From Actinomycetota bacterium (GTDB lineage Bacteria; Actinomycetota; AC-67): a stretch of 64,000 nucleotides of DNA. The position numbers and the translations under genes are program-made. Location: contig DASWJS010000015.1 of assembly GCA_036397035.1 (NCBI GenBank), positions 2,105-66,104 on the forward strand, in the 5' to 3' direction. Below, piece by piece: positions 5,491 to 30,089 of this stretch (its first letter is position 1; the number at the start of each line of letters is the position of its first letter). Under the pieces are notes generated by a model. That model had not been told where the DNA came from and searched no databases. It saw only the letters and a program-made list of their open reading frames with translations.

Positions 5491-6578
5491 GCACCGACGG
5501 TAGCTGCGATCAGCTCGCCCGTCACGACGTTCTCCAGCAGCTTGCCGCGCGTGGTCAGCGTGGCTCGGCTGCCGTCGAGGGCGAGCAGGCCCCGGCCGGC
5601 CAGGCGCTGCAGGACGGGCGTGACGTCGCGGTCGAGCCGCGCCGACAGCTCGGCGACGTCGATCGGGTCGAGCAGCCGGAGCCGCAGCGCCGCCCACTCC
5701 TCGGCCCGGGCGCGCGGTGCGAGGTGCTCCTCGCCCGCGCGGGCGCGCGCCGGGTCGCGCAGGTACGCCGGGAGCGACCGGACGTTCCACCACCGGTGGC
5801 CCGCGCGGTGCGAGTGCGCCCCGATGCCGAGCCCGAGGTAGTCGTCCTGGCGCCAGGCGCTGAGGTTGTGGCGGCACCGACGGCCGGGCAGCGACCAGTT
5901 CGAGATCTCGTACTGCTCGAAGCCCGCCTCGCCGAGCACGTCGATCGCGCGCTCGTAGCGATCCGCCAGCGCGTCCTCGTCGGGCGCCGGCATCCGGTCC
6001 GCCGCGACCGCTGCCCCGAACGCGGTGCGCTCCTCGATCGTGAGCGCGTAGCACGACACGTGGGTCGGGCGCAGCGCCACGGCCTCGCGCAGGGACGCCG
6101 TCCAGTCCTTGGCGGTCTCGCTCGGCCCCCCGTAGATCAGGTCGAGGTTTACGTCCTCGATCCCGGCCGAGCGCACGGCCTCCACCGCGGGCGCGATCGC
6201 CGCCGCGCGATGCGTGCGCCCGAGCCCGCGCAGCACGTGGTCGCCGAAGCTCTGCGCGCCGACCGAGACCCTGGTGACGCCCGCCGCCGCCCACGCGCGC
6301 GCGCGGCCGGGCGCGACCGATTCGGGATTGGCTTCGAGGCTCACCTCGGCCGCGCCGCCGGGGATCAGGCGAGCGAGCAGCGCGGGCGCGACGAAGCTCG
6401 GCGTGCCGCCGCCGAGGAAGACCGTTTCGTAGGTCGCCGTCCAGCGGAGCGCGTCGTGCTCGGCGAGCAGCGCCTCGACGTAGCGCTCGTGCTCGGGCTC
6501 GCGCCCGACCACGACCGCGAAGTCGCAGTAGGGACACAGCGCCGAGCAGAACGGCAGGTGGATGTAGAGCCCGGTCAC
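5487..6578 (-). CDS. hemW: Radical SAM heme chaperone HemW
   Basis: LYIHLPFCSALCPYCDF CxxxCxxC, TVFLGGGTPS, YEISNWS; between lepA and hrcA; GTG start at 6578. Confidence 0.93.
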   Translation of the reverse strand: MTGLYIHLPFCSALCPYCDFAVVVGREPEHERYVEALLAEHDALRWTATYETVFLGGGTPSFVAPALLARLIPGGAAEVSLEANPESVAPGRARAWAAAGVTRVSVGAQSFGDHVLRGLGRTHRAAAIAPAVEAVRSAGIEDVNLDLIYGGPSETAKDWTASLREAVALRPTHVSCYALTIEERTAFGAAVAADRMPAPDEDALADRYERAIDVLGEAGFEQYEISNWSLPGRRCRHNLSAWRQDDYLGLGIGAHSHRAGHRWWNVRSLPAYLRDPARARAGEEHLAPRARAEEWAALRLRLLDPIDVAELSARLDRDVTPVLQRLAGRGLLALDGSRATLTTRGKLLENVVTGELIAATVGA

Positions 6579-6624
6579 GCGCCTACCGTACGCTGCCGCT
6601 GCGGAACGAGTGAAGGAGCGGGCG

Positions 6625-7509
6625 ATGAGGGTCGCGATCGGCGGCTCGACCGGCTTTCTCGGCCGGCACCTGGCCGAGCGGCTGCGCGCGCGCGGCGACG
6701 AGGTGATCCCGCTCGTGCGCCCGTCGACGCGCGCGAGCGGCGTCGCCTGGGACCCCGTCGCCGGCACGCTCGACACCGCGGCGCTCGCCGGGGTCGACGC
6801 AGTCGTCAACCTCGCCGGGCACCCCGTCGGGCGCCGCTGGACGCGCGGCCAACGCGCGCGCATCTGGACGAGCCGCGTGGACGCGACCCGCGCGCTGTGC
6901 GCGTCCCTCGCCGCCATGCCGTCGCCGCCGGAGTTCGTGATCGGCGCCTCGGCGATCGGCTACTACGGCGAGCGCGGCACGACGATCCTGGACGAGTCGT
7001 CGCCGCCGGGATCGGGCTTCCTCGCCGGGGTGTGCCGGGCATGGGAAGCGGCGAACGCCCCCGCGCGCGCGGCCGGCATCGCGGTCGCCACCATCCGCAC
7101 CGGGATCGTGCTCGGGCTCGGCGGCGACTTGATGAAGCGGCTCCTGCCGATCTTCAAGCTCGGACTGGGCGGGCGGCTCGGCTCGGGCATGCACTACCAG
7201 TCCTGGATCAGCCTCGAGGACCACATGCGCGCGCTGTTGTTCCTGCTGGACGAGCGGCGCGCCGGCGCGTTCAACCTCACCGGCCCCGACCCGGTCACGA
7301 ACGCCGAGTTCACGCGCGCGCTCGCCGCGGTCCTGCGCCGCCCCGCCTTCCTGGCCGTCCCGGCGGTCGCGTTGCGCATCGTGCTCGGCAACGGCTTCGC
7401 GCGCGAGGTGACCTCCAGTCAGCGCGTGATGCCGCGCGCGCTGCTCGACGCCGGCTTCACCTTCGCGCACACCGAGGTCGGCGACGCCCTGCGCTGGGCC
7501 CTGTCCTAG
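6625..7509 (+). CDS. TIGR01777-family NAD-dependent epimerase/oxidoreductase
   Basis: [11 protein letters not shown] Rossmann motif, [22 protein letters not shown]; AAGGAG RBS before ATG 6625. Confidence 0.9.
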
Positions 7510-16652: not shown

Positions 16653-19106
16653 CTACTTCACGACGAAGTTGACGAGCTTCGGAGGCCGGATGATCGTCTT
16701 GACGATCTCCTTGCCGTCGACGTGACGCCGCACGTTGTCCGAGGCCAGCGCGCGCTCGCGCATCTCGTCCTCGCCGATGCCGGCCGGCACCTCGATCGTG
16801 TCGCGCACCTTGCCCAGGACTTGCACGACCATGGTGACCGTCTCGACCGTCAGCAGAGCCGGGTCGGCGTCCGGCCAGGGCGCGCGCAGCAGCGGGGTCG
16901 CATTGCCCCAGCGGTGCCACAGCTCCTCGGTCACGAACGGCGCGAAGGGCGAGAGCAGCTTCACCAGCGCCACCACGGCCTCGCACACGTCGGCCTCGGC
17001 GGCGTCCTTCCGGTCGGCGATCTCGTTGGACAGCGTCATCATCTTCGCGATGGCCGTGTTGAAGCGGAAGCGCTCGACATCGCCGGTCACGCCCTCGATC
17101 GCGCGGTGGGTCGCGCGCCGCAGCGGCGAGTCGCCCGCGGGTTGCGGGCCCGCCGCGATCGACTCGGCATGGGCGACGCCCAGCCGCCACACGCGCGAGA
17201 TCCACCGGTAGACGCCCTGCGGGTTGACGTCGGCCCAGTCCACGTCGGCCTCGAACGGCCCGGCGAACATCATCGTGACGCGGGCAGTGTCCGCCCCGTA
17301 GTCGTCGATGATCGCCGAAGGCCGCACCAGGTTCCCGCGCGTCTTGGACATCTTCGAGCCGTCCATGACCACGTCGCCCTGGTTCACCAGGTTGGGATAG
17401 GGCTCGGCGAAGGGCACCAGGCCCAGGTCGTGGCAGACCTTGGTGAAGAAGCGCGAGTAGATCAGGTGGCCGGTCGCGTGCGTGATTCCCCCCACGTACT
17501 GGTCCACCGGCATCCAGCGGGCGACCGATTCGGTGTCGAAGGCGGCGTCCTGGCTCGGCCCCGCGTAGCGGAAGAAGTACCACGACGAGTCGATGAACGT
17601 GTCGAGCGTGTCGGTCTCGCGCTTCGCGTCGCCGCCGCAGCTCGGACACGGCACGTTCACCCAGCCCTCGATCTTGGCCAACGGCGACTGCCCGGTGCCG
17701 GTCGGCAGCCAGTCGGTCAGCTCCGGCAGCTCGACCGGGAGCTGGTCCTCGGGGACCGAAACCTCGCCGCAACGCGGACAGTGCACGATCGGGATCGGGC
17801 AGCCCCACGCGCGCTGGCGCGAGACGTTCCAGTCGCGCAGGCGGTAGCGCACGCGGCCGGTCCCCAGCCCTTCGGCCTCCAGCCACTTCACGACGGCGGC
17901 GATCCCGCCCGGCGTCGCGGTGCCGTCGAAGTCGCCCGAGTTCGCCATCAGTCCTTCGCCTTCGTAGGCGGCTTCCATCGTGTCGGCGTCGAGGCGCGCG
18001 TCGTCGGGTTGGATGACCACGCGCACGGGCAGCCCTTCCTGGCGAGCGAACTCGAAGTCGCGCTGGTCGTGCGCGGGGACGGCCATGATCGCGCCGGTCC
18101 CGTACTCCATCAGCACGTAGTCGGCCAGCCAGATCGGGATGTGCTCGCCGTTGACGGGGTTGATCGCGTGCGAGCCGGTGAAGATGCCCTCGCGCGCGTG
18201 CCCGGCCGCGGTGCGCTCGATCTCGGTCTTCGAGCGCACGCGGTCCACGAACGACCGGAACTCGTCGCGCCGGATCGGCGCCGTCAGCCGCTCGGCGAAC
18301 GGGTGCTCCGGCGCGAGCACCATGAAAGTCGCGCCCCACAGCGTGTCCGGCCGCGTGGTGTAGATCGTCAGCTCGTCGCCGGTCTCGGCGATCGTGAAGG
18401 TCACGTCGGCGCCCTGCGAGCGCCCGATCCAGTTGCGCTGGATCGTCAGCAGCCGCTCGCTCCAGCCGGTGAGCCGCTCCATGTCGTCCAGCAGCCGCTG
18501 CGCGTACTCCGACTCGCGGAAGAACCACTGCACCAGGTCGCGCTTGGTGACGGGCGTGTCGCATCGCTCGCACAGCCCGCCGATCACCTGCTCGTTGGCC
18601 AGCACGGTCTTGTCCTTCGGGCACCAGTTCGTCGGCGAGGACTTCCGGTAGACCAGGCCGGCCTCGCGGAACTTCAGGAACAGCCACTGCGTCCAGCGGT
18701 AGTACTCGGGGTCGCACGTGTGGAAGCGGCGAGTCCAGTCGAACGAGAATCCCACGCGCTTGAACGACTCCGCCTGCTGCTCGATGTTGGCGTAGGTCCA
18801 CGTGCGCGGGTTGATGCCGCGCTTGATGGCCGCGTTCTCCGCGTTCAGGCCGAAGGCGTCCCAGCCCATCGGGTGCAGGACGTTGAAGCCGCGCATCCAC
18901 TTGTAGCGCGCGACGATGTCGCCGCCCGTGTAGGCCTCCAGGTGCCCCATGTGCAGGTCGCCGGAGGGGTACGGGAACATGTCGAGCATGTAGAACTTCG
19001 GCTTGGCGCTCGTGGCCGGGTCCTCGGCCGTGAACAGCCCGTCGGCGACCCAGCGCTCGGCCCACGCGGGCTCGATCGCGTGCGGATCGTAGGCGTCCTG
19101 GCTCAT
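16653..19106 (-). CDS. leuS: Leucine--tRNA ligase
   Basis: MFPYPSGDLHMGH (HIGH), KMSKT (KMSKS), editing domain TTRPDT. Confidence 0.98.
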   Translation of the reverse strand: MSQDAYDPHAIEPAWAERWVADGLFTAEDPATSAKPKFYMLDMFPYPSGDLHMGHLEAYTGGDIVARYKWMRGFNVLHPMGWDAFGLNAENAAIKRGINPRTWTYANIEQQAESFKRVGFSFDWTRRFHTCDPEYYRWTQWLFLKFREAGLVYRKSSPTNWCPKDKTVLANEQVIGGLCERCDTPVTKRDLVQWFFRESEYAQRLLDDMERLTGWSERLLTIQRNWIGRSQGADVTFTIAETGDELTIYTTRPDTLWGATFMVLAPEHPFAERLTAPIRRDEFRSFVDRVRSKTEIERTAAGHAREGIFTGSHAINPVNGEHIPIWLADYVLMEYGTGAIMAVPAHDQRDFEFARQEGLPVRVVIQPDDARLDADTMEAAYEGEGLMANSGDFDGTATPGGIAAVVKWLEAEGLGTGRVRYRLRDWNVSRQRAWGCPIPIVHCPRCGEVSVPEDQLPVELPELTDWLPTGTGQSPLAKIEGWVNVPCPSCGGDAKRETDTLDTFIDSSWYFFRYAGPSQDAAFDTESVARWMPVDQYVGGITHATGHLIYSRFFTKVCHDLGLVPFAEPYPNLVNQGDVVMDGSKMSKTRGNLVRPSAIIDDYGADTARVTMMFAGPFEADVDWADVNPQGVYRWISRVWRLGVAHAESIAAGPQPAGDSPLRRATHRAIEGVTGDVERFRFNTAIAKMMTLSNEIADRKDAAEADVCEAVVALVKLLSPFAPFVTEELWHRWGNATPLLRAPWPDADPALLTVETVTMVVQVLGKVRDTIEVPAGIGEDEMRERALASDNVRRHVDGKEIVKTIIRPPKLVNFVVK

Positions 19107-19160
19107 GGTGCGCGTCAGTCTATCGAGGCGCGGATCGAGCTTCGCGCGGGTTTCGCCTCG

Positions 19161-20174
19161 TCAGGCCGCCCAGGCGGCGAGGAACGCGAGCGCGACCGTC
19201 GCGGCGTTGTCGGCGGCGAGCTGGCGGTAGTAGAAGAACTGGAACGGGAAGCCCGGCAGCCCGAGTGGGTCGCCGCCGCCGTCCGAAGCCGCACGGAACG
19301 CGATGAAGGGCACGCCCTTCTCCTCCGCGACCTTGGCGACCGCGGCAGTCTCCATGTCGAGCGCCACGTAGTCGCCCGGGGGCGGGGCCGAGGCGCCGAA
19401 GTAGTTGAAGAAGAAGTTCGGATCCACGAACGGCACGGCATGCTCGACGGTTCGCCGAGCCTCCGGCGCCCCGGTCGTCAGGGGAACGCGGCAGGGATGG
19501 CAGCCGAAGACGTCGCCGCCGCCGGGGAAGCACGGCAGCGTGCGCCCCTCGAAGCCGTCCGAGCTGGCGCCGTGCGCGCCCATGCGGATCCGCGGCTCCT
19601 CGGTGACGGTGACGGTCGTGACCGCGCGCGGGTCCGCGCCGACGCACGCGGGATCGCCCGCCGGCACGTCGCTCGCGAGCAGGACCGAGCCGCTCGACGC
19701 GACCGCCTCCGCCGTCGCGTACATCGCCGGGTCGACGGCGAAGTGGTGAACGCCGTCCAGCGTCCAGCCCTCCGGCACCATCACGTCGCCGATGTTGGGC
19801 CCTCCCGAGACGCCGGAAAACACGATCCCTTGGATGGTCGTGGCGTCCGCGCAGGAGAAGTGCTCGAGCGCGAGCCGGGTCGTTCTGTCCGCGTTCACCA
19901 GCCCGATCCCGGTCAACGCGAGCACGACGTCGTTGTCTTCGAGCGTCCCGACGTAGAAGGTGCCGGCGCCGGACGAGCCGTCGACGGCCTCGACGCGCTC
20001 GACGCTCGCCGCGCCGAGAAGCATGTCGATCTCTCCCGGAAAGGCCGACAGCACGAGCAGGCGGGGCGTGCAGTCGGGCTCCGCGGGCGCGAGGCTGGGC
20101 GCGCCGGCCACCGCCAGCGCGACCGCGATCAGAGCCGTTGCGCGCCTCACCAGAGCGGGGTTCGCCGCGCGCAC
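19161..20174 (-). CDS. MTA/SAH nucleosidase / nucleoside phosphorylase-fold protein with probable signal peptide
   Basis: [38 protein letters not shown]; hydrophobic N-terminus. Confidence 0.75.
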
Positions 20175-20242
20175 GCCTGCATCCTGCCTGGCGGAGATGC
20201 CGGTCGCGGGCGCGGGCGCCGCTGCTAGAATCCCGCGAACGC

Positions 20243-20315
20243 GGGGCTGTAGCTCAGTTGGTAGAGCGCCACGATGGCATCGTGGAAGTCAGGGGTTCGA
20301 ATCCCCTCAGCTCCA
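20243..20315 (+). tRNA. tRNA-Ala(GGC), CCA not encoded
   Basis: GGGGCTG/CAGCTCC acceptor stem with G3:U70, anticodon arm CCACG-AT GGC AT-CGTGG, GTTCGAAT T-loop; TAGAAT -10 upstream. Confidence 0.98.
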
Positions 20316-20320
20316 CTTGA
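20302..20320 (+). repeat. att site (left copy, tRNA 3' end)
   Basis: 19-bp repeat with 1 mismatch to 25903-25921. Confidence 0.85.
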
Positions 20321-21160
20321 GGTTCCTTAATAGAACCCTTCGACGGATGCTGTCGAAGGGTTCTTTGTATTCAACGCTGACGACCTGCCGGCCCTTGACG
20401 TAGACGGCCTTGAAGATCGCCTGGTTCCACTTCCTGCGGTCCTGCTCGTCCGCTCGCTTGTACGAGCGGTGGCAGTTGGCGATGAGCTCCAGGCACTTGT
20501 TGATGAGGTCGCGGGCCGCTTCGAGCTTGATCCCTGCGAGCGCGAGCTGGCTCTCGGCTTGGCTGACTTCGCTGTCGATGCGCTCCTGCTCTTGCTTGAA
20601 CATCTCCAACGGGAGGGCATCGGCGTAGTAGGCCTTGAGGAGCCGGTCGCGTTCGTTGGCGAGTTTGGCGAGGCGGCAACTTGCGAGCTGTGTGGCTCGC
20701 GTGCGGTCTCGCTCGCGCGTGGCGGCTTCCTGTTTGAGGTCCCGCTCGATATCGTCGCGTACCTCTTGGGGCAGTCGGATCTGTCGGTAAAGCTCCTCGA
20801 TCTGCCGCTCGATGGGGCCTGCCGGCGCGTATAGCTCTCGGCATTCGGTCCTTCGCTGATGTGACCCCAGGCAGAAGAAGTACTCGAAACGCCCTTGCTT
20901 CTTGATGAGACTCGACATCCGGGCGCCGCAGTTTCCGCAGAACAGGGTTCCGCGCAGGTAGTGCCCGCGCTGGCGTCTGCGATCCCCAGCTAGGTCGTGC
21001 GCTCGGAACACCTCTTGAACCTTGTCGAAGAGTTCGCGGCTCACGATCGGCTCATGCCGTCCTTCGTACTCGACGCCTTTGAAGACGACCTTTCCGATGT
21101 AGGCCTTGTTCTTGAGCAGCTCGGCGAACTTTGAGCGCGACAGCGGCTTGCCCGCTCGGT
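20307..21160 (-). pseudogene. Large serine recombinase, C-terminal half only (recombinase, Zn-ribbon and coiled-coil domains)
   Basis: LLKNKAYIG, GRHEPIVSRELFDKVQ, LRGTLFCGNCGARM, YFFC; no N-terminal catalytic resolvase domain; the ORF ends within the antisense of the tRNA 3' end. Confidence 0.85.
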
Positions 21161-21395
21161 TCGGTACCAACCAAACGTCGGCATGAGTAAGCTGGAGAAG
21201 ATCAACACCGAGAAGCTTGGCGAGCTCATCCCACGGGTTACATCCGTCTTCGAGGAAGCGTGCCGCTTCATCGAGGGACACTCCCAGCCCTTGCCCACCC
21301 TGGGTGTCAGCCCGACGCTCGCCGGGCTGGAAGACCATTGGAAGGAACTTCAAGAATGCAAGCGGATCAACGACGGTAAGGAGCCGACAACCTGA
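21159..21395 (+). pseudogene. 3'-terminal fragment of a larger protein, probably an SMC-like/AAA ATPase
   Basis: VRYQPNVGMSKLEKIN...FEEACRFIEGHSQPL.TL...PTL resembles C-termini I recall from island AAA ATPases; family call unverified. Confidence 0.4.
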
Positions 21396-21455
21396 CTCTG
21401 GGTAAGCGAGAAGCAGCGTGAAGCCAACTTTCGATCGCCTGTGATGCCAGTCTGG

Positions 21456-22094
21456 TTACTGATAGTCCGCAACGGAAGCGTCGTCGTCAGCCCTCATCCA
21501 GTCACCTACGCGGGCGCGACTTGGTAGGCGGGACTCACCCACCGGTTCGCCTCGGCGGTAGGCGTTCAGGTCATCCACCACGACTTTGAACGCGTCGACA
21601 AGCCGGGGGATCGCTGGGCCGCTGAGTGGCTTCGGCTGCCCAAAGCGGTCCTTGTCCGTTTCCTTCTGAAGCTCGTACACCTCGGCAAGGGCAGCGTTCA
21701 CGATATCGACGCGTTCTCGCAAGCTGGGTTCCGCAACTACATCCCGATTGATCGCGATCGCGGACTGGAGGGCGAGATAGAGTTCGCGGTAGTCCCAGTT
21801 GCTTCTCTCGATGAGGCGCTGAGCCGACACGAGGGCTTCGACGAGACGACCCGCTGCTTCCCTGGACAGGCTTCGCTCTCTGAACCGCCGCTCCTTGTCC
21901 ATCTCGTCAGCCATCCGTTTGGTCTGCCCGGCGTAATGTCGAGTGACCAAGACGAGGGCTAGCGTTACAAGAAAGGCTGCGATAGAAGCAGCCGCTTGGA
22001 TCCAGTCTGGGACGCCCGACGTGATCTCGACGACGACGTTCGCCGGGCTGGGGGTTACTCCGGCAGTCGGCGTCGGGCTTGGAGTCATCATCAT
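21456..22094 (-). CDS. Hypothetical protein with N-terminal TM helix
   Basis: 212-aa ORF, single hydrophobic segment WIQAAASIAAFLVTLALVLVT. Confidence 0.65.
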   Translation of the reverse strand: MMMTPSPTPTAGVTPSPANVVVEITSGVPDWIQAAASIAAFLVTLALVLVTRHYAGQTKRMADEMDKERRFRERSLSREAAGRLVEALVSAQRLIERSNWDYRELYLALQSAIAINRDVVAEPSLRERVDIVNAALAEVYELQKETDKDRFGQPKPLSGPAIPRLVDAFKVVVDDLNAYRRGEPVGESRLPSRARVGDWMRADDDASVADYQ

Positions 22095-22153
22095 GCGCGG
22101 ATTGTAGAGGCACTACACCGAGCTTGAGGCCCCCGGTCTCGGGCATCGGCTCT

Positions 22154-22182
22154 TTGACCCTGCCCACTTGGAGGGCTACCGT
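22154..22182 (+). promoter_or_regulatory. Sigma-A-type promoter of the island cargo run
   Basis: TTGACC-N17-TACCGT, 10 nt before ATG 22193. Confidence 0.6.
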
Positions 22183-22192
22183 TCTGTCGGAC

Positions 22193-22990
22193 ATGGGATG
22201 GCTGGCTAAGACTCGATCTCGAGTCGTTCGCTGGGTGCGAAGGACGATCGACTCCGGCAGGCGTTTCGGTTTCCATGTGCTCGATGGGCCGACATGGATG
22301 TCTGCGCTGGCCACCTTCATCGTCTTCCAGGCTTGGCGACGTCAGGATGCGATCCAGCTCTGGACCCTCGCCGGTCTTGCGTTCATCGGTTTGAGGGTGT
22401 GGGACAGACGACTGAGGGCCGGCGAAGAGAAGCCGGCCCGAATCACAGAACTTGAGAACACCCTCCGCACCCTGCTGTTCCCTGTCCGACTGTTGGTGAA
22501 GCTCACGGGCATCCTGATCGGTATCGCGATGGCAGGGGCCGCATGGATCGCCTTCTTGGGGGGCGCAGCCTGGATCGTGGAGCAAGGACAGCACCAGGAT
22601 TCAGGGCTGCTCAAGGCTCTCGGCTGGACGCTCTTCGGCATCGGCGTCCTTCCCGTCATAGGCCTTGTGTTAGCCGGGTGGATAAGCGACTGGGAAACTG
22701 GCGATGGTGGCTACTCGTCTCGGAGACCCGAACCCGAACCCGAGCTCTCATGGTGGCCGAAACGCGAGGATGGGTCGGAGGACGCCACACGGCCTCCCAG
22801 GAGAAGTGGTAGACCCGATCACGTGAGCAAATCCCAAACGTCTGCGTATCCCCTCGGCTTCGGTCCGATGCTCTACAAGACTGAGATAGAAGAAGATGGG
22901 GCCACGTATACAGGCCATGGATGGACAAGGAAGGAAGCGAACCAAGAGGCGAGCGGGAAGTATGGGCGCGGACAGAGAGATAGGCGATGA
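22193..22990 (+). CDS. Hypothetical multi-pass membrane protein with soluble C-terminal tail
   Basis: About 4 hydrophobic segments; ATGA overlap with the next gene; start moved to ATG 22193. Confidence 0.6.
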   Translation: MGWLAKTRSRVVRWVRRTIDSGRRFGFHVLDGPTWMSALATFIVFQAWRRQDAIQLWTLAGLAFIGLRVWDRRLRAGEEKPARITELENTLRTLLFPVRLLVKLTGILIGIAMAGAAWIAFLGGAAWIVEQGQHQDSGLLKALGWTLFGIGVLPVIGLVLAGWISDWETGDGGYSSRRPEPEPELSWWPKREDGSEDATRPPRRSGRPDHVSKSQTSAYPLGFGPMLYKTEIEEDGATYTGHGWTRKEANQEASGKYGRGQRDRR

Positions 22991-23244
22991 GCAGCCGGAG
23001 TATTCAGGTACCTCAGCACACACCTGGAGAAGCCACCAAGGGAAGGCGCCTCGCAATCTGCTTGATCCAGAGTTATCAACGACGCCTCGCGCCCAGGCTG
23101 CCTACAACGTGCGTGTACGAGCCGACGTGCTCGCAGTACATGGTCCTTTCCATTGAGAAGCACGGAGCGTTGAGGGGGCTGTGGTCAGGGGTGCGCAGGA
23201 TCGCACGCTGTCGCCCCGGTCGTGGTGGATACGACTATCCGTGA
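22987..23244 (+). CDS. YidD-like (membrane protein insertion efficiency factor / haemolytic domain) protein
   Basis: LIQSYQRRLAP...CVYEPTCSQY...IEKHG...G...IARCRP..GG.D with three conserved Cys. Confidence 0.88.
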   Translation: MSSRSIQVPQHTPGEATKGRRLAICLIQSYQRRLAPRLPTTCVYEPTCSQYMVLSIEKHGALRGLWSGVRRIARCRPGRGGYDYP

Positions 23245-23253
23245 GGGGGAGTT

Positions 23254-23436
23254 ATGGCCTACCAGTTGCTACCTGTAGCGAGCGAGTTTCGCCCCAAGGA
23301 CTTGGAGCGCCTCGCTGCTCAGCTCGATCAACTTCAAAGCGAAGGCTGGGAGCTCGTCTTCGTGTTCCCAGTGACGACCAAGACCTGCCTGTTCTTCACG
23401 AATCAAACCAATCTCATGGTCCTCCGAAGGGACTGA
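23254..23436 (+). CDS. DUF4177-like small protein
   Basis: LERLAAQLDQLQSEGWELV pattern; strong GAGGGGAG RBS. Confidence 0.6.
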   Translation: MAYQLLPVASEFRPKDLERLAAQLDQLQSEGWELVFVFPVTTKTCLFFTNQTNLMVLRRD

Positions 23437-23443
23437 CACCGCG

Positions 23444-24214
23444 TTGGATCGGGTCCGGGAACTCCGCTATGGCTTGCGATGGCTGGAGTCTCGTCACTCC
23501 GTGACCATCGCAGAAGATGCCCCCGCACTGGAGGGCAAGCTCGGGGACTTCAACGTGCGCTTAGAGGGGACAACGCTCTCAGCCACGCCTCTCGTGGACT
23601 TTTCGAGTGAAGAGACCGCTCGCGCGGCGATGGAGCCGTTGCTAGCGGACTGGGAGGTGGAGTGGGATCTCCGTCACGGGCTTGGGATGGCATTCTCCTT
23701 CGAGAGCTGTTCGTTGGAACCGGTGGGCGGTTCTGGTGGGAAGAACTTTAAGGTCCACGTCGCAGGTACGGTGAACGTTTCAGCATCCATGTCGGTTTCG
23801 AGGAGCGACTTTCCTCCCCTTCCCTCGGCGCTCAAGAGCACGCCTCTCATCCGCGAGCTTCGTGCAAGGCTGCACGATGTTAGAGACGAGCGTGAGCGCC
23901 TTCTCGTTGGCGCTCAGTGGATCCTGACCAGGCTCGAAGGACACTATGGAGGGCGTGCAGCAGCGGCTAAAGCGTTGTCCGTGTCAGGCAAGGCGCTTGA
24001 TGAGCTGGGGCGGCAGTGCGACCGCAACGATCCGGAGATTGGCCGGAAGGCCCGCAGGCCACCAGACCCGCTTTCCCCTGAGGAGAAGGGCTGGGTGCTC
24101 TATGCGGTGATAGCTCTGGTGATTCGTGCGGCTGAAGTGGAGGCAGGGCTGCAGCAACTTGGTACGTTGACCAAAGACACGCTGCACCTGTACACGGGAA
24201 CGAGAGCGCCATGA
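23444..24214 (+). CDS. Hypothetical protein (island-associated)
   Basis: 256-aa ORF, ATGA overlap with the next gene. Confidence 0.6.
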   Translation: MDRVRELRYGLRWLESRHSVTIAEDAPALEGKLGDFNVRLEGTTLSATPLVDFSSEETARAAMEPLLADWEVEWDLRHGLGMAFSFESCSLEPVGGSGGKNFKVHVAGTVNVSASMSVSRSDFPPLPSALKSTPLIRELRARLHDVRDERERLLVGAQWILTRLEGHYGGRAAAAKALSVSGKALDELGRQCDRNDPEIGRKARRPPDPLSPEEKGWVLYAVIALVIRAAEVEAGLQQLGTLTKDTLHLYTGTRAP

Positions 24215-24618
24215 GCCAGATGCACTGTACCGATTGCGAGGCCACGATTGACGTCGCACACGCGGGCGATCCTTGTCCCACCTGTGGGAGCATCGACCGG
24301 TCCATCCTCGGATCCGACTCCGGTCGTGGCCGGGAGTTCGCGATCTCCAAGCAGGGAACGCCGCCCCTCGGAGAACCGCTTACGAACAAGTGGGTAAGGC
24401 GCGAGGTCCGAGCTGGCGAACCCGGACAGCGCGACGGCACCCGGCGTGAGCTATACAGGGAGATTGATCGAGACCGAGACCTCTACCGCGAGAGGGTCGT
24501 GAATCTGGAGTCGGGGGAGGTTGAGCGCGACGTGGAAGAGCCGCTGACCGAGCACCGCCAGAGAGAACGCCAATCTCGCTCCAAGGGAGGCAGCGCAACC
24601 GGTAGCAATGGAGAATAG
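24211..24618 (+). CDS. Zinc-ribbon hypothetical protein
   Basis: CTDC...CPTC; C-terminal IDRDRDLYRERVVNLESGEVERDVEEPLTEH. Confidence 0.65.
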   Translation: MSQMHCTDCEATIDVAHAGDPCPTCGSIDRSILGSDSGRGREFAISKQGTPPLGEPLTNKWVRREVRAGEPGQRDGTRRELYREIDRDRDLYRERVVNLESGEVERDVEEPLTEHRQRERQSRSKGGSATGSNGE

Positions 24619-24663
24619 CCCGGCAATCGTCAGTTAAGCCGGCCAACCCCGACGTCATCAATC

Positions 24664-25716
24664 TTGAGTTTAGACGATTCGCTTGCTTCGTGGGACGAGG
24701 TTGCCCCACAGTTTCACCACGCTCTCCTTGTCGGGAACGGAGCGAGTATTGCTGTTTCTGCGTCGTTCGCATATCCCTCACTGCTCGAGATCGCGAGCAG
24801 TTCGCTTGTAGCCAATCGGCTGTCGCCTGACGAGCGAGCGGTCTTCGAATCGACGAACGACACCAACTTCGAACGTGTACTTGGCGAGCTCGCTACGGCG
24901 GCTGTGCTAGCGGAACAGGTTGGACTGGATGCAACTCCTCTCCGTGAACGTTATGCTCGCATCAGGCGAGCGCTGATTGAGGCCGTCCATGCAGTCCATC
25001 CTCGGCATGGCGACTTGCCAGAGGAGCGTTTCGAACGCGTCCAGGAATCGCTTCTCCACTTCAGTGAAGTGTTCACTACGAATTACGACCTGCAACTTTA
25101 TTGGGCGATCACAAGCACGAAGCGTATGGACGACTTCCGTGACTTCTTCTGGAATCCTGGGCTGGCGTTCGATCTAACGAATACGTGGACTCCGGAGGAC
25201 AAAGTCCGCGTGTTCTATCTCCATGGCGCGCTCCACCTCTTTCACCTGCCGAATGGAACGACCGTCAAGGCCACAGGGGGCGACGACAACCCGTGGAGTC
25301 CCTACGTGCCGTTGCTTGATCTCACCTTTGAATACAAGGAGGCCCGCTACCCTCTCTTTGTCAGTGAGGGCTCCACGGAGCAGAAGATGGCGGCCATCAC
25401 TTCCAACGCCTATCTCGGGTTCGCATACGAGACGTGGAACCGGATGTGCTGGGACTGGTCCAGCACACTTGTCATCTTCGGACACGGATGCGGCGCGCAA
25501 GACGAACACATATGCGCACCGATCAAGGCACGAGTTGCGAAGTCTCAGGAGAGGGATCTCTCGGTGCCGAAGATTGCCGTTTCGATTGCTCCCCGCGACA
25601 GTGACCATGTCATTGCTCGGAAGCTCCATTATCGCGAGAAGTTTCACGAAGATATCGTCTTTTTCGATGCGAGGACGCACCCGCTTGGGCAACCCACCGA
25701 CCCACCATCACCATGA
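24664..25716 (+). CDS. DUF4917-family, SIR2-like domain protein
   Basis: LLVGNGAS, NFERVL, FTTNYDLQLYW, FYLHGALHLF, PLFVSEG. Confidence 0.75.
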   Translation: MSLDDSLASWDEVAPQFHHALLVGNGASIAVSASFAYPSLLEIASSSLVANRLSPDERAVFESTNDTNFERVLGELATAAVLAEQVGLDATPLRERYARIRRALIEAVHAVHPRHGDLPEERFERVQESLLHFSEVFTTNYDLQLYWAITSTKRMDDFRDFFWNPGLAFDLTNTWTPEDKVRVFYLHGALHLFHLPNGTTVKATGGDDNPWSPYVPLLDLTFEYKEARYPLFVSEGSTEQKMAAITSNAYLGFAYETWNRMCWDWSSTLVIFGHGCGAQDEHICAPIKARVAKSQERDLSVPKIAVSIAPRDSDHVIARKLHYREKFHEDIVFFDARTHPLGQPTDPPSP

Positions 25717-25902
25717 TTCCAGGGCCAGGCGCTGCTCCGTTTCCAGGATCGATAAACCTACCTCGTCGTGGGCGGCGTTTGCGCAGGGAGTTCCCGCTAG
25801 CCGGAGAGCATCTTGAGCTGATTTAGCTGAGCTAGGCACTCGACTGCGATCTCCAGCAGTTCAGGAAGCTGTTCTCGCCGCCTGGAAGGAGTTCTACTAC
25901 TG

Positions 25903-25921
25903 TCCCCTCACCTCCACTTGA
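25903..25921 (+). repeat. att site (right copy, tRNA-Ala 3' fragment)
   Basis: TCCCCTCACCTCCACTTGA, preceded by the T-arm-like GGAGTTCTA. Confidence 0.85.
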
Positions 25922-25976
25922 CCCTCCGGTAACCACCGGTAACCGAACCCTTCTGGGACCTGCGCGGTCGACCCCA

Positions 25977-26030
25977 TTGACGCCTCTTCGATCTGGCCCT
26001 AGCATGGTCCTGTAATAAGGCTTGTTACAG
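25977..26030 (+). promoter_or_regulatory. Promoter and palindromic operator of the CopG-PIN TA locus
   Basis: TTGACG-N17-TAGCAT (25977-26005), then CTGTAATAAG-G-CTTGTTACAG inverted repeat (26010-26030). Confidence 0.7.
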
Positions 26031-26042
26031 AAGGGCGGATGG

Positions 26043-26303
26043 ATGCGTCCAAGTCAAACGGTCACGGTTTCTCTTCCGCCCGAGCTCGCTCGTGAGGTTG
26101 ATCGGGTCGCGCGCAAGGAGGGCCGAAGCCGAAGCGAGATGTTCCGGGAGGCTCTACGGCAGTACCTTGCTCGGCGTGACCGCTGGGATCGGATCTTCGC
26201 GGTGGGTGAGCAGGCAGCGCAACGTCTCGGCGTTACCGAGCAGGACGTGACCGCTGCGGTCAAGGCTCGGCGGAAGGCGCGGACCCGCAAGGCTCGCCGC
26301 TAG
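26043..26303 (+). CDS. CopG/RHH antitoxin
   Basis: TVTVSLPPELAREVDRVARKEGRSRSEMFREAL; stop overlaps the toxin start. Confidence 0.88.
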   Translation: MRPSQTVTVSLPPELAREVDRVARKEGRSRSEMFREALRQYLARRDRWDRIFAVGEQAAQRLGVTEQDVTAAVKARRKARTRKARR

Positions 26304-26710
26304 TGCGGGTACTCCTCGACACGAACGTCCTGCTCTCGGCCATCTTGTTCGGCGGGATCCCTCGAAGGCTGCTCGAGGCAGCGATCGACGGCCGGCTGCG
26401 CCTGGTGACAAGCCGGCATCTCATGGAGGAATTCGAGGAGATCCTGGAGGACAGGTTCGACTTCTCGAAGGCGGCCGCCGTCGAGACGAGATCCGAACTC
26501 GAGGTGCTGGCGGAGCTGGTGGAACCGCTCGAGGTCCGGCAGGTATGCAGGGATCCGGATGACGACCACGTCTTGGCGGCAGCCGTAGCGGGCCAAGCCG
26601 AGGCGATCATCACCGGCGACCGTGATCTCCTGGCGTTGGAGTGGCACGAGGAAGTCGAGATCCTGACGCCGGCATCGTTCGATCTCCGGTTGCGGGATCT
26701 CGATAAGTAG
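26303..26710 (+). CDS. PIN-domain toxin (PIN_3-type)
   Basis: VLLDTNVLLSA, CRDPDDDHVL, IITGDRDLL. Confidence 0.9.
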   Translation: MRVLLDTNVLLSAILFGGIPRRLLEAAIDGRLRLVTSRHLMEEFEEILEDRFDFSKAAAVETRSELEVLAELVEPLEVRQVCRDPDDDHVLAAAVAGQAEAIITGDRDLLALEWHEEVEILTPASFDLRLRDLDK

Positions 26711-26805
26711 CCTCAAGGCTCGACCGAAAGCGGCGTCGATGGAGCCAGGGCGCGGTTCGCGCACCGTTCTGTTGAGACCACCACGCTCGCTCCGACCAAC
26801 GGCTG

Positions 26806-27210
26806 CTATTCGGCCGTGCCGAGTTTGGCCGGCCGGATGACCCGCACGTCCTTCATCGGAAAGTCGGTCACGTTGTCGGTCACGAGCACCGCGCCGTGTG
26901 CCCTGGCTGTTCCGGCGATGAGAGCATCAGCCAGATGAACGGTCTTTCCCTTCTTCGCCCAGTCGGACTGATACCGGCCGGCTTTCTCCGCGGCCTCCCT
27001 CGTCGTGGTGAGAAACTCCATCCGATCGAGCAGCGCTTCGGCAGCTCGACGTTCTGACGGCCGCAACCCACGCTCGATCTCGGCGATGTTGACGCAAGAG
27101 ACGCACAGGGAGTCGCCGTGTTGAAGCAGCGCCAGAAGACTGTGCGCGACCGACTCGTCCCCCCGAAGGTGGGCTATCAGAACGGTAGTGTCCAGGAGAT
27201 AGCGGCTCAT
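26806..27210 (-). CDS. vapC: VapC PIN-domain toxin
   Basis: YLLDTTVLI, IAEIERG, ADALIAGTA, LVTDNVTDF; ATG 27210 overlaps the antitoxin stop. Confidence 0.9.
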   Translation of the reverse strand: MSRYLLDTTVLIAHLRGDESVAHSLLALLQHGDSLCVSCVNIAEIERGLRPSERRAAEALLDRMEFLTTTREAAEKAGRYQSDWAKKGKTVHLADALIAGTARAHGAVLVTDNVTDFPMKDVRVIRPAKLGTAE

Positions 27211-27452
27211 CCACTCCGTCCGGATCTGCGCCCCTCCCGAACCCACCTGGCGGCCGTCTGCCGATCCTTCCAATGCGTGTAGCGCTTGCCGCTCGTCAAG
27301 CCTCTGGTCGCATGGAGTGATTCCTCCAGCTCCAAGCGCGAGAGCTTTTCGCGAGCGGCCTCCTCTAGGAATCTGCTGCGGCCCCGTTCGCCGACCTTCT
27401 CGTCGATCGCCGCGAGCAGGTCGTCTGCCATCACCACATGGGTTCTCGCCAC
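27207..27452 (-). CDS. RHH-type antitoxin
   Basis: RTHVVMADDLLAAIDEKVGERGRSRFLEEAAREKL; upstream of VapC. Confidence 0.8.
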   Translation of the reverse strand: MARTHVVMADDLLAAIDEKVGERGRSRFLEEAAREKLSRLELEESLHATRGLTSGKRYTHWKDRQTAARWVREGRRSGRSG

Positions 27453-27475
27453 CGCCGCTCTTCTCCCTCAATAAA

Positions 27476-27520
27476 TCCCACTGGATGTCCCACTCTATCC
27501 ATCGGCGGTCGATCAATCAA
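27476..27520 (-). promoter_or_regulatory. Promoter and repeat operator of the second TA locus
   Basis: Minus strand TTGATT-N17-TAGAGT (27520-27492); TCCCACT direct repeats at 27476-27482 and 27488-27494. Confidence 0.55.
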
Positions 27521-27719
27521 GAGGAGATGGGGAGGAAGCAGAATCCTTCCGGAGTGCAGCGAGGCCGAAGCGGTGAGCGGGGCGCGTTGACCTGCGTCTG
27601 CGCGGGTCTCGGAAGGAGTTGGACCGGCGCCGTCGAACCGAGGGTTCTGGGACCGGGCTCTGCCGGTACCCGACGGGCCCGCGACGGCACGAACCCACGA
27701 CGAGGAAGGCGGCGACGGG

Positions 27720-30089
27720 ATGTTGGACGGCATGCAGGAAACGAAGCGCTCCGGGCACACCCATCGCGTACGCGCCCTCGTCGTGACGGCATGTCTGGCA
27801 ATCGGCTCGCTGGCGACCGCCGGGAGCCGGGCCTCGGCCACGGACTTCACCGCCTCGGGAAGCGCAGAGCAGGTCTACGTCCTCGGCGCGGCGCCCGGCG
27901 TGGAGATGTCGCTGCTCACGCCCGAGGGCGCCGTTCTGTACACGCAGACCGCGAACGCGAACGGGGGGCTGCTGTTCCGCGACGTCCCGCCGGGCGAGGG
28001 ATACCGTGTCGAGTCCGACGGGACCCTGTCGAACCCGCTCACCGTGCACGGCGACGACGCAGCGCCGTGGGATCCGAGCATCTACCAGCAGCCCATCCCT
28101 GCCAGCGGGTACGGCTACCTCACGACCCGCGACGGGACGCAGCTCGCCTACACCGTCCACCCGCCGACCAGCCCGGCAGGTCAGCCGGGGCTGCCGCACG
28201 GCACCGACGTGCCCGACGGCCCCGCCGGCGTGGACTACCTCCCGCCCTACCCCACGCTGATCGAGTATTCCGGATACGGCTACGCCAACCCAGCCGGGCC
28301 CCAGAGCGGGATCGCCGTCCTTGCGAACCTCATGGGCTTTGCCGTCGTCGACGTGAACATGCGCGGGACGGGTTGCTCGGGCGGCGCCTTCGACTTCTTC
28401 GAGCCGCTGCAGAGCCTGGACGGCTACGACGTCGTGGAGACGATCGCCAACCAGCCGTGGGTGCTCGGCAACCGCGTCGGGATGCTCGGCATCTCCTACG
28501 GCGGGATCAGCCAACTGTTCACCGCGCAGCTTCAACCGCCTCACCTGGCGGCGATCACGCCGCTGTCGGTCATCGACGCGACCGCGACGACGCTGTACCC
28601 GGGCGGCATCCTCAACACGGGCTTCGCCGTCGCCTGGGCCGCAGAGCGCCAGAGCCAGGCTCGCCCGGCGCCGGACGGACAGGGCTGGGCGAACCAGCGG
28701 ATCGAAGAAGGCGACGAGACGTGCGCCGCCAATCAGGCGCTCCACGGCGAGGCGGCCGACCTGATGCAGAAGATCACCGACAACAGCCACTACGTCCCGG
28801 CGGTCGCCGACCCGCTCGACCCGGTGACGTTCGTTCACAAGATCAACGTGCCGACGTTCATGGTCTGCCAGTGGCAGGACGAGCAGACCGGCGGGCACTG
28901 CCCGGAGCTGGCCAAGAACTTCACCGGCACGGACAAGAAGTGGTTCACCTTCACGAACGGCGCCCATATCGACTCGCTGGATCCCGAGACCTACAACCGC
29001 TGGTACGACTTCCTGCAGTTGTACGTCGCCCGCCAGGCGCCGATCGTCAACCAGGCGCTCAGCCGCGCGGCCGCGCCGGTCATCTACCAGGAGGCGATGG
29101 GCCTTCCCGACGACCACGTCGTCACCCTGCCGCTCGATCCCATCCAGCAAATCCCCACCTACGACGCGGCTCTCGCAGCCTTCGAAGCGCAGCCGCCGAT
29201 CCGCGTGCTGTTCGACAACGGCGCCGGCACCTCGCCGACCGGGGACCAAACCCCGGGCGACCCGTACGCGGCGTTCGCGCGCGATTTCTCCTCCTTCCCG
29301 ATTCCCGGCACGGCCGCGCAAACCTGGTACTTCGGCCCGGAGGGCGCCCTCTCGGACCAGTTGCCGCCGGACGCGGGCATCGACCAGTACACGTCCGACG
29401 TGAGCGCGCTGCCCCTGACGAACTTCACCGGAGGCACCGGCGGCGGCGGCCTGTGGGGCAACGCGTCCCAGTGGATCTGGGATTGGCAGCAGAACCCGGC
29501 CGGGAAGGCTCTGTCCTACGTCTCGTCACCGCTCGCCGCGGACACGACGGTCATCGGCGCCGGAGCCGTCTACGCCTGGGTGCGCTCGTCGACCCCCGAC
29601 GTGGACCTTCAAGCCACGATCAGCGAGGTTCGTCCGGACGGCAACGAGACGTTCGTTCAGAACGGCTACATGCGCGCCAGCGAACGCAAGCTCTCCACCG
29701 ACGCCGGCAACCTGTTCAAGACGCCCAGCACGCTGCTCAACCCGATCCCGAGCTTCCTGGAGGCGGACGCGTCCCCCATGCCGAGCGGCGAGTTCGTCAA
29801 GGTCGCGATCCCGCTCTACTACCAGGGACATGTCTATCGAGCGGGCTCGCGCATCCGCGTGACCATCGCGGCGCCGAACGGCGCGCAGCCCGTGTGGTCG
29901 TTCGGCGAGACGGTGCCGGCCGGCACGGCGGAGGTGTCGATCGCGTTCTCTCCGACGCAACCCTCGAAGCTCGTGCTCCCGGTGGTGCCGGGGTTCCGGG
30001 CCCCGACGCCGTTGCCGCCGTGCCCGAGCTTGCGGAACCAGCCATGCAGGCCCTATCAAGCGATCGTCAACGGCTCGGCATCGCAATAG
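27720..30089 (+). CDS. Secreted CocE/NonD (S15-like) serine hydrolase
   Basis: Signal peptide, YPTLIEYSGY, VNMRGTGCSGG, GISYGG nucleophile elbow, C-terminal jelly-roll. Confidence 0.85.
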   Translation: MLDGMQETKRSGHTHRVRALVVTACLAIGSLATAGSRASATDFTASGSAEQVYVLGAAPGVEMSLLTPEGAVLYTQTANANGGLLFRDVPPGEGYRVESDGTLSNPLTVHGDDAAPWDPSIYQQPIPASGYGYLTTRDGTQLAYTVHPPTSPAGQPGLPHGTDVPDGPAGVDYLPPYPTLIEYSGYGYANPAGPQSGIAVLANLMGFAVVDVNMRGTGCSGGAFDFFEPLQSLDGYDVVETIANQPWVLGNRVGMLGISYGGISQLFTAQLQPPHLAAITPLSVIDATATTLYPGGILNTGFAVAWAAERQSQARPAPDGQGWANQRIEEGDETCAANQALHGEAADLMQKITDNSHYVPAVADPLDPVTFVHKINVPTFMVCQWQDEQTGGHCPELAKNFTGTDKKWFTFTNGAHIDSLDPETYNRWYDFLQLYVARQAPIVNQALSRAAAPVIYQEAMGLPDDHVVTLPLDPIQQIPTYDAALAAFEAQPPIRVLFDNGAGTSPTGDQTPGDPYAAFARDFSSFPIPGTAAQTWYFGPEGALSDQLPPDAGIDQYTSDVSALPLTNFTGGTGGGGLWGNASQWIWDWQQNPAGKALSYVSSPLAADTTVIGAGAVYAWVRSSTPDVDLQATISEVRPDGNETFVQNGYMRASERKLSTDAGNLFKTPSTLLNPIPSFLEADASPMPSGEFVKVAIPLYYQGHVYRAGSRIRVTIAAPNGAQPVWSFGETVPAGTAEVSIAFSPTQPSKLVLPVVPGFRAPTPLPPCPSLRNQPCRPYQAIVNGSASQ

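Follow-up and report, generated by a model that had tools for sequence, protein, structure and literature searches.

Within a 64,000-nucleotide stretch of DNA from an Actinomycetota bacterium (NCBI GenBank assembly GCA_036397035.1, contig DASWJS010000015.1; the window, below), six co-directional open reading frames (ORFs) are crowded together between positions 22154 and 25716. In order, they encode a multi-pass membrane protein, YidD, a product of only 60 amino acids (aa), a 256-aa member of a family without a name, a putative zinc-ribbon protein and, last, a SIR2-like protein of the DUF4917 family (Table 1). The original prediction was that membrane sensor and adaptor components are here coupled to an NADase-like effector as one undescribed defence or membrane-stress system, with an accreted set of unrelated cassettes as its fallback. 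The comparative analysis described here favors the fallback with fair assurance: the run is probably a set of passengers on a decayed transfer RNA (tRNA) island, in which DUF4917 acts alone and not as one component of six.

Table 1. Features of the six-gene run, of the island that carries it and of the adjoining DNA (positions are those of the window; GC3, GC content at third codon positions)
Feature	Position	Strand	Remarks
tRNA-Ala(GGC)	20243-20316	+	island integration target; the window's single tRNA; found by ARAGORN; Rfam tRNA 70 bits
Left direct repeat (attL-like)	20302-20320	+	final 15 nt of the tRNA plus 4 nt
Large serine recombinase remnant, 348 aa	20307-21353	-	adjoins the tRNA; Recombinase and Zn_ribbon_recom domains; GC3 0.76
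Single-pass membrane hypothetical, 212 aa	21456-22094	-	hydrophobic segment at about residues 30-56; GC3 0.71
Promoter-like TTGACC-N17-TACCGT	22154-22182	+	-35 at 22154-22159, -10 at 22177-22182
Multi-pass membrane protein, 265 aa	22193-22990	+	hydrophobic segments; hydrophilic C-terminal tail of about 100 aa
YidD (membrane protein insertion efficiency factor)	22987-23244	+	PF01809, TIGR00278
60-aa ORF, weakly DUF4177-like	23254-23436	+	preceded by GGGGGAG
256-aa family member	23444-24214	+	TTG start; N-terminal beta-sheet and helix domain, C-terminal helical domain
Putative Zn-ribbon protein, 135 aa	24211-24618	+	N-terminal CxxC...CxxC; highly charged tail
DUF4917 SIR2-like protein, 350 aa	24664-25716	+	PF16263; PADLOC PDC-S21
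Right direct repeat (attR-like)	25903-25921	+	18/19 match to the tRNA 3′ end; island end
Toxin-antitoxin pair, RHH and PIN_3	26022-26710		outside the right repeat; own promoter-like TTGACG-N17-TAGCAT at 25977-26005
Convergent toxin-antitoxin pair, RHH and VapC	26806-27452	-	outside the right repeat

The physical description on which the original prediction was built is accurate. The promoter-like site and the six ORFs are present, as are two ATGA overlaps, at 22987-22990 between the membrane protein gene and yidD and at 24211-24214 between the 256-aa and Zn-ribbon ORFs; the remaining intergenic gaps are of 9 nt (the one with GGGGGAG), 7 nt and 45 nt. A looser actinobacterial promoter pattern, TTGAC-N18-TANNNT, occurs twice in the window against an expectation of 0.10, and both copies (22154 and 25977) are on the correct strand directly upstream of operon starts. 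A stricter sigma-70 scan omits the 22154 site, whose TACCGT agrees with TATAAT at three of six positions. The first in-frame ATG of the run, at 22193, is only 10 nt past the -10 hexamer, which implies, as far as the sequence can tell, that the six-gene transcript is leaderless or nearly so; a gene caller applied to the identical contig placed the start of the membrane protein gene at 22298. A sequence scan gave no terminator-like site between any of the genes of the run, the sole plus-strand candidate in the span being weak and internal to the DUF4917 ORF. With short gaps and overlaps, no intergenic terminator and a promoter pattern enriched at operon starts, the six ORFs are probably co-transcribed from the 22154 site. 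The run may have arrived as one block, as its uniform GC3 and tight spacing would allow, but these features are uninformative about functional coupling.

The last gene of the run gives the clearest indication of function. Its product matches Pfam PF16263 at 134.9 bits (cut-off 28; E = 5.5e-39), so that the DUF4917 label holds, and it matches the PADLOC model PDC-S21 (PDLC04961) over nearly its full length (288 bits, 2.3e-86, residues 5-344 on profile positions 11-330 of 336) and phrog_30889 at 1.1e-58. Among 34 homologues there is no variation at G24-N25-G26, Y141, D142 or H187, and conservation of N140 is at least 90%; the SIR2 motifs GNG, TTNYD and LHG are thus intact and in invariant or near-invariant columns. 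An AlphaFold2 model (pLDDT 90.7) was compared by Foldseek with known structures, and its best match is the SIR2 subunit of Escherichia coli SIR2-HerA (E 9e-10), followed by KomC/HAM-SIR2, PfSir2A and Hst2. The sequence profile also aligns with the SIR2-HerA SIR2 chain over the catalytic stretch from TTNYD to LHG. The SIR2-like character claimed for the gene is borne out by both the PDC-S21 match and the fold, and on the modeled structure a SIR2-fold protein with an NAD+-consuming defence role is plausible.

The supposed novelty fares less well for this gene, which is already in the PADLOC catalogue as a single-gene candidate. The 145 PDC entries, some of one gene and others of several, are untested candidates picked out through guilt-by-embedding in BREX, DISARM or type I restriction-modification loci (10.1101/2024.01.29.577857), and no paper naming PDC-S21 was encountered in the literature searched. 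The PADLOC comparison proposed along with the original prediction thus gave an answer for one gene only: DUF4917 is PDC-S21, but no PADLOC model matches any of the five upstream proteins.

A six-part system predicts that its genes will be found together elsewhere. Homologous DUF4917 loci were gathered from 52 IMG/VR and 36 plasmid records, and about 55 independent loci were tested by tblastn with the other five proteins and by a hidden Markov model of the 256-aa family run against six-frame ORFs. None of these loci has any of the other five genes. The neighbors of the closest DUF4917 homologues (59, 54, 48 and 42% identity) are wholly different from those in the run; one close homologue comes after a PLD-helicase and Type ISP methylase pair and another is beside a PLD gene and an MZB gene. 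The only neighbors to recur are phage backbone genes in a group of about 13 P2-like prophage contigs (L109, L111 with the gene at 5938-6999, L112, L123, L127, L128, L130, L136, L137, L139, L141, L146 and L151), in which DUF4917 is a lone opposite-strand insert between tail-completion or terminator genes and baseplate genes, with lysis genes nearby. An opposite-strand insert between phage backbone genes is the classic moron position, and is typical of phage-carried defence genes. Outside these prophages the neighbors differ in every independent locus, the pattern of an autonomous gene that has no conserved partner.

The same test from the side of the other genes gave the same answer. Genes for YidD, the Zn-ribbon protein, the DUF4177-like protein and DUF4917 are missing from all seven independent contexts of the 256-aa family, and no other member of the run is present at the single homologue found for the Zn-ribbon gene or in four plasmid yidD contexts. 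Conserved gene order across unrelated genomes, the hallmark of a multi-gene system, was thus found nowhere that it could be looked for. The full-length PDC-S21 match, the lack of a partner in about 55 loci and the lone insertion in prophages together argue that DUF4917 acts by itself; from its fold, motifs and genomic company it is a probable stand-alone NAD+-consuming effector.

The 256-aa protein was at first sight an orphan, having no match in Pfam, NCBIfam, PADLOC or PHROG. Word-indexed searching recovered only two proteins with the single sequence and eight with a profile, and it was exhaustive HMMER searching that revealed a family of 866 representative clusters (50% identity) at E<=1e-3, mostly full-length and of about 250 aa. 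Y9 is invariant in this family, which supports the TTG start. Other conserved positions are L67, several aromatic residues and prolines, and R201-K202 in a DP..GRK loop; no acidic, histidine, cysteine or serine residue is conserved in the alignment. The AlphaFold2 model is confident (pLDDT 90.7, pTM 0.86), with a long helix accompanying the N-terminal beta-sheet and with the C-terminal half helical, and in that half the AAKALSVSGKALDELG segment of the model looks like a helix-turn-helix. Foldseek searches of PDB and BFVD with the model, and a search of PDB sequences with the profile, gave nothing significant; a scan of viral contigs was empty and a phage collection held no match. With no conserved catalytic residues and a helix-turn-helix-like C-terminal half, the protein is more likely, to judge from alignment and model, to have a binding or regulatory role than an enzymatic one.

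In all seven independent contexts the 256-aa gene is a lone gene. The homologue in one of them, with 60% identity, has flanking genes on the opposite strand; another adjoins TumE, a third is on a Streptomyces linear plasmid and a fourth is close to a transposase gene and DUF2924. Two are clear defence islands: in one the gene overlaps the end of a UvrD-like helicase gene with SLFN/AlbA and type I restriction-modification genes alongside, and in the other it is between an Eco57I-type methylase gene and AIPR with AbiV and AbiE close by. In the seventh it stands by itself between the sucCD and sdh operons. The 256-aa protein is accordingly viewed, with the same fair assurance as the accreted-cargo reading to which it belongs, as a second and independent passenger, widely distributed and often in defence or mobile contexts.

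About the other four genes there is less to compare. The 265-aa membrane protein has no family in Pfam, NCBIfam, PADLOC or PHROG, tblastn against plasmids gave nothing, and its only metagenome match is to the identical sequence; within the searches made it is an orphan. The YidD label is secure (PF01809, 80.8 bits against a cut-off of 27, E = 6.2e-23; TIGR00278, 71.2 bits against 40), and the CVYEPTCSQY...CRP core with its conserved cysteine is present. The gene sits between the orphan membrane gene and the 60-aa ORF, outside the canonical rpmH-rnpA-yidD-yidC cluster (which is present in one comparison locus, L101, of the plasmid search), and this marks it as an accessory copy. Some plasmids also have a stand-alone yidD, in varied contexts with no recurring neighbor and no recurring membrane partner. 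In three loci (L004-L006) a 37-aa stretch within a Type ISP methylase gene also matched YidD (E about 1e-4 to 5e-3), a match discounted as an artefact of low complexity. It is possible that YidD aids insertion of the adjoining membrane protein.

The two remaining labels survive in part. The 60-aa ORF does resemble DUF4177 (PF13783, E 0.0018), but its 18.9 bits fall short of the gathering threshold of 25, so that the likeness is resemblance only, and it has no match among plasmids. The Zn-ribbon protein does have the CxxC...CxxC motif, but its HypA and Zn_ribbon_8 profile matches are weak and sub-threshold. A scan of viral contigs with it was empty, and the one homologue, with 35% identity, comes from a Thermomicrobium megaplasmid, where an AbrB/MazE-type gene precedes it and a DEAD-box helicase gene follows, a context unrelated to the run. 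The membrane protein, the yidD copy, the 60-aa ORF and the Zn-ribbon protein are likewise regarded as probable further passengers, this being part of the same reading and of the same standing.

The island itself is well delimited. The tRNA setting claimed in the original prediction is confirmed by the recurrence of the tRNA-Ala(GGC) 3′ end, with 18 of 19 positions matching, at the right repeat: the window has two copies of the 19-mer with up to two mismatches, where none is expected. Between 20302 and 25921 this direct repeat encloses 5.6 kb. GC content, about 70% in the window at large, falls to about 0.57-0.62 from the tRNA to approximately 26000, and all genes between the repeats have a GC3 of 0.64-0.76, as against 0.92-0.96 for the core genes (those for leucyl-tRNA synthetase, LeuRS, a 337-aa protein and a peptidase). 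A tRNA 3′-end repeat, deviant composition and a recombinase gene, the features by which a tRNA-integrated island is recognized, are thus all here. The 212-aa gene, with no match in Pfam, NCBIfam, PADLOC or PHROG, is further island cargo; it points away from the six-gene run, with 98 nt of intergenic DNA between the two. An Rfam scan of 19500-28000 gave no RNA family other than the tRNA-Ala.

The recombinase has decayed. Its Pfam Recombinase domain begins at residue 64 (profile positions 33-99), with Zn_ribbon_recom at residues 133-189, and the PHROG 95 integrase aligns with it only at profile positions 291-574 of 651; the N-terminal resolvase catalytic domain is therefore missing, and with its loss the island is immobilized. 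The remnant ORF extends into the tRNA 3′ end and the left repeat, and within it, directly after the tRNA, is a perfect hairpin with a 15-bp stem and a T-rich tail (20332-20364). The usual enzyme at tRNA sites is a tyrosine integrase. A serine recombinase is not what one would normally find at a tRNA site that has a 19-nt repeat, and the insertion may have been the work of another enzyme. Beyond the right repeat, the two toxin-antitoxin pairs (25977-27516) also have a GC3, 0.69-0.83, lower than that of core genes; foreign DNA hence reaches past the repeat, perhaps as an older insertion.

The host bears on how far any of these comparisons can go. The best match to LeuRS (16653-19106, minus strand) among 185,579 GTDB species representatives has 58% identity, and the top matches are metagenome-assembled genomes of uncultured Actinomycetota. 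With no GTDB representative more similar than this, the source is, on protein sequence, a deep and essentially unsampled soil lineage of the phylum, and its poor sampling restricts all comparative tests of the six-gene run. A search of metagenome contigs found the exact window sequence only in soil-metagenome assemblies. A LeuRS-based scan of GTDB genome contigs for close relatives or an island-free tRNA-Ala site yielded no usable synteny, and a search of metagenome contigs for an island-free allele recovered no joint that skips the island. The metagenome assembly is interrupted at the tRNA. Assembler depth over 19000-28000 is about 19-31x in the left flank and about 14-19x in the island and right flank; related strains with a common left flank but without the island might account for the step.

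The history that best fits these observations would run as follows. A 5.6-kb integrative island would have inserted into the 3′ end of tRNA-Ala(GGC) with the 3.5-kb run as its cargo, and subsequent loss of the recombinase catalytic domain would have left it stuck. The six ORFs would be transcribed together from 22154, and at the two ATGA overlaps their translation would be coupled. On phage infection DUF4917 would hydrolyse NAD+, or perhaps act by ADP-ribosylation or deacylation, and so abort the infection, the upstream genes not being needed for this. For DUF4917 itself an infection-triggered NADase is, from fold, motifs and distribution, the most likely role.

Several considerations weigh against reading the run as accreted cargo with a defence gene at its end. 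Tight packing with two coupled junctions is just what a functional operon is expected to look like, the similar GC3 of all six genes fits their arrival as a single block, and a lineage-specific system in poorly sampled Actinomycetota would look identical. Of the six genes, just two allow a good test of co-occurrence: searches of limited depth gave no homologue of the membrane protein or of the 60-aa ORF, and the neighborhood evidence for the Zn-ribbon gene comes from its single homologue. As to a single transcript, the sequencing runs that contain the window sequence are of soil-metagenome DNA contigs, none being of RNA. For the role of DUF4917, no anti-phage activity of any DUF4917 protein is reported in the literature searched, and the only experimentally studied family member found there, SliP of Campylobacter jejuni, is reported to be a secreted sirtuin that deacetylates histones and other proteins (PMC10421069).

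What then of the six genes as one lineage-specific defence or membrane-stress system, in which YidD would aid a membrane sensor, the small and 256-aa proteins would relay or gate its signal and DUF4917 would be the NADase effector? The co-directional arrangement with its two overlaps, gaps of 7-45 nt and uniform GC3, a single upstream promoter-like site and no terminator between genes are all as such a system would have them, and SIR2 effectors are usually partnered in Thoeris, SIR2-HerA and DSR. Against this, the genes do not co-occur in about 55 DUF4917 loci or seven contexts of the 256-aa family, no PADLOC model recognizes any of the five upstream proteins, and DUF4917 is catalogued as a single-gene candidate and travels alone as a prophage moron. 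The claim of one undescribed system with membrane sensor, adaptor and NADase does not survive these counts, and the original idea in this form is now very improbable; given the absent co-occurrence, its own fallback is the better reading. A composite in which the 256-aa protein is wired with the Zn-ribbon protein and the membrane-YidD pair to control the DUF4917 NADase would be a new system, or, in a weaker version, the 256-aa family alone would be a new single-gene defence or defence-regulator family; this too is very unlikely, if marginally less so. Division of the run into two or three adjacent small modules is unlikely as well, without being so remote. The membrane protein and YidD (perhaps with the 60-aa ORF) would form one, the 256-aa and Zn-ribbon proteins a regulator-effector or toxin-antitoxin-like pair, and DUF4917 would be on its own. 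The two ATGA overlaps coincide with just these two pairs and a gap of 45 nt separates them from DUF4917, YidD is by family annotation a membrane-insertion helper, and the one Zn-ribbon homologue follows an AbrB/MazE-type gene; yet no 256-aa homologue has a Zn-ribbon gene downstream and its flanking genes are mostly on the opposite strand, plasmid yidD copies lack a recurring membrane partner, and the membrane protein offers no homologue in plasmid or metagenome searches with which a YidD pairing could be examined.

Least probable of all, and only barely to be entertained, is that DUF4917 resembles SliP in being an NAD+-dependent protein deacylase that serves in regulation or host interaction, and that the island cargo is unconnected with phages. 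The sirtuin deacetylase activity reported for SliP (PMC10421069) speaks for this, as do the Foldseek matches to the classical deacetylases PfSir2A and Hst2, but these have weaker E-values and it is antiphage SIR2 NADases that match the fold best. The family was moreover identified through embedding in BREX, DISARM or type I restriction-modification loci, and its homologues in prophage moron positions, on plasmids and beside restriction-modification-like genes have the distribution of defence genes; the organism is from soil and not from a host-associated niche.

Taken as accreted cargo, the run is nothing out of the ordinary for a small, decayed tRNA island with defence-type contents. It adds a phylogenetically remote member, from a deep soil lineage of Actinomycetota, to the PDC-S21/DUF4917 candidate family, and it carries the lesson that operon-like packing on islands should be taken for a system only where the genes are found together elsewhere as well. 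Of the by-products, the unnamed 256-aa family is the most useful. Being big, confidently folded, structurally unmatched and present beside restriction-modification and abortive-infection genes, it is a reasonable candidate for defence screens.

Comparison with known systems places the DUF4917 protein near several of them and within one candidate family. Its closest solved fold is the SIR2 of SIR2-HerA (PDB 8suw, 8sub, 8uae and 8wld; Foldseek probability 1.0, TM-score about 0.5), but sequence identity is only about 14% and DUF4917 is a separate Pfam family. No ATPase domain, and so no HerA-type ATPase, was found in any island ORF with Pfam, PADLOC or NCBIfam, and with the adjacent HerA ATPase missing, membership of SIR2-HerA is excluded. 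With Thoeris ThsA and with DSR1 and DSR2 it has in common the SIR2 Rossmann-like fold and the Asn/Asp/His motifs of the NAD+ site. Pfam and PADLOC find no TIR, SLOG or Macro domain in the island proteins; lacking a ThsB TIR partner and a SLOG or Macro sensor domain, the locus is not Thoeris, and DSR is excluded by missing domains and by architecture, the island protein not being of the DSR type of more than 1000 aa. Matches to the PADLOC SIR2 models are marginal (best 3.4e-5), and NCBIfam SIR2_antiphage gives 16.8 bits against a cut-off of 500. SliP is of the same Pfam family, a likeness by family membership alone, but it is reported to be the secreted deacetylase of a pathogen whereas the present gene is on a tRNA island of a soil actinobacterium. 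With tRNA-linked defence islands the locus shares duplication of the tRNA 3′ end, an adjoining recombinase gene, lower GC, defence-type cargo and toxin-antitoxin genes alongside, and differs from them in having a truncated large serine recombinase instead of the usual tyrosine integrase. The nearest relation is PADLOC PDC-S21 itself, with the same size, the same single-domain architecture and a full-length match, the gene being here on a mobile island. There is no architectural difference between the two; what sets this member apart is that it closes a packed run of six genes, whereas its counterparts elsewhere stand isolated, and a defence role is the prediction for the whole PDC-S21/DUF4917 family, the island gene included.

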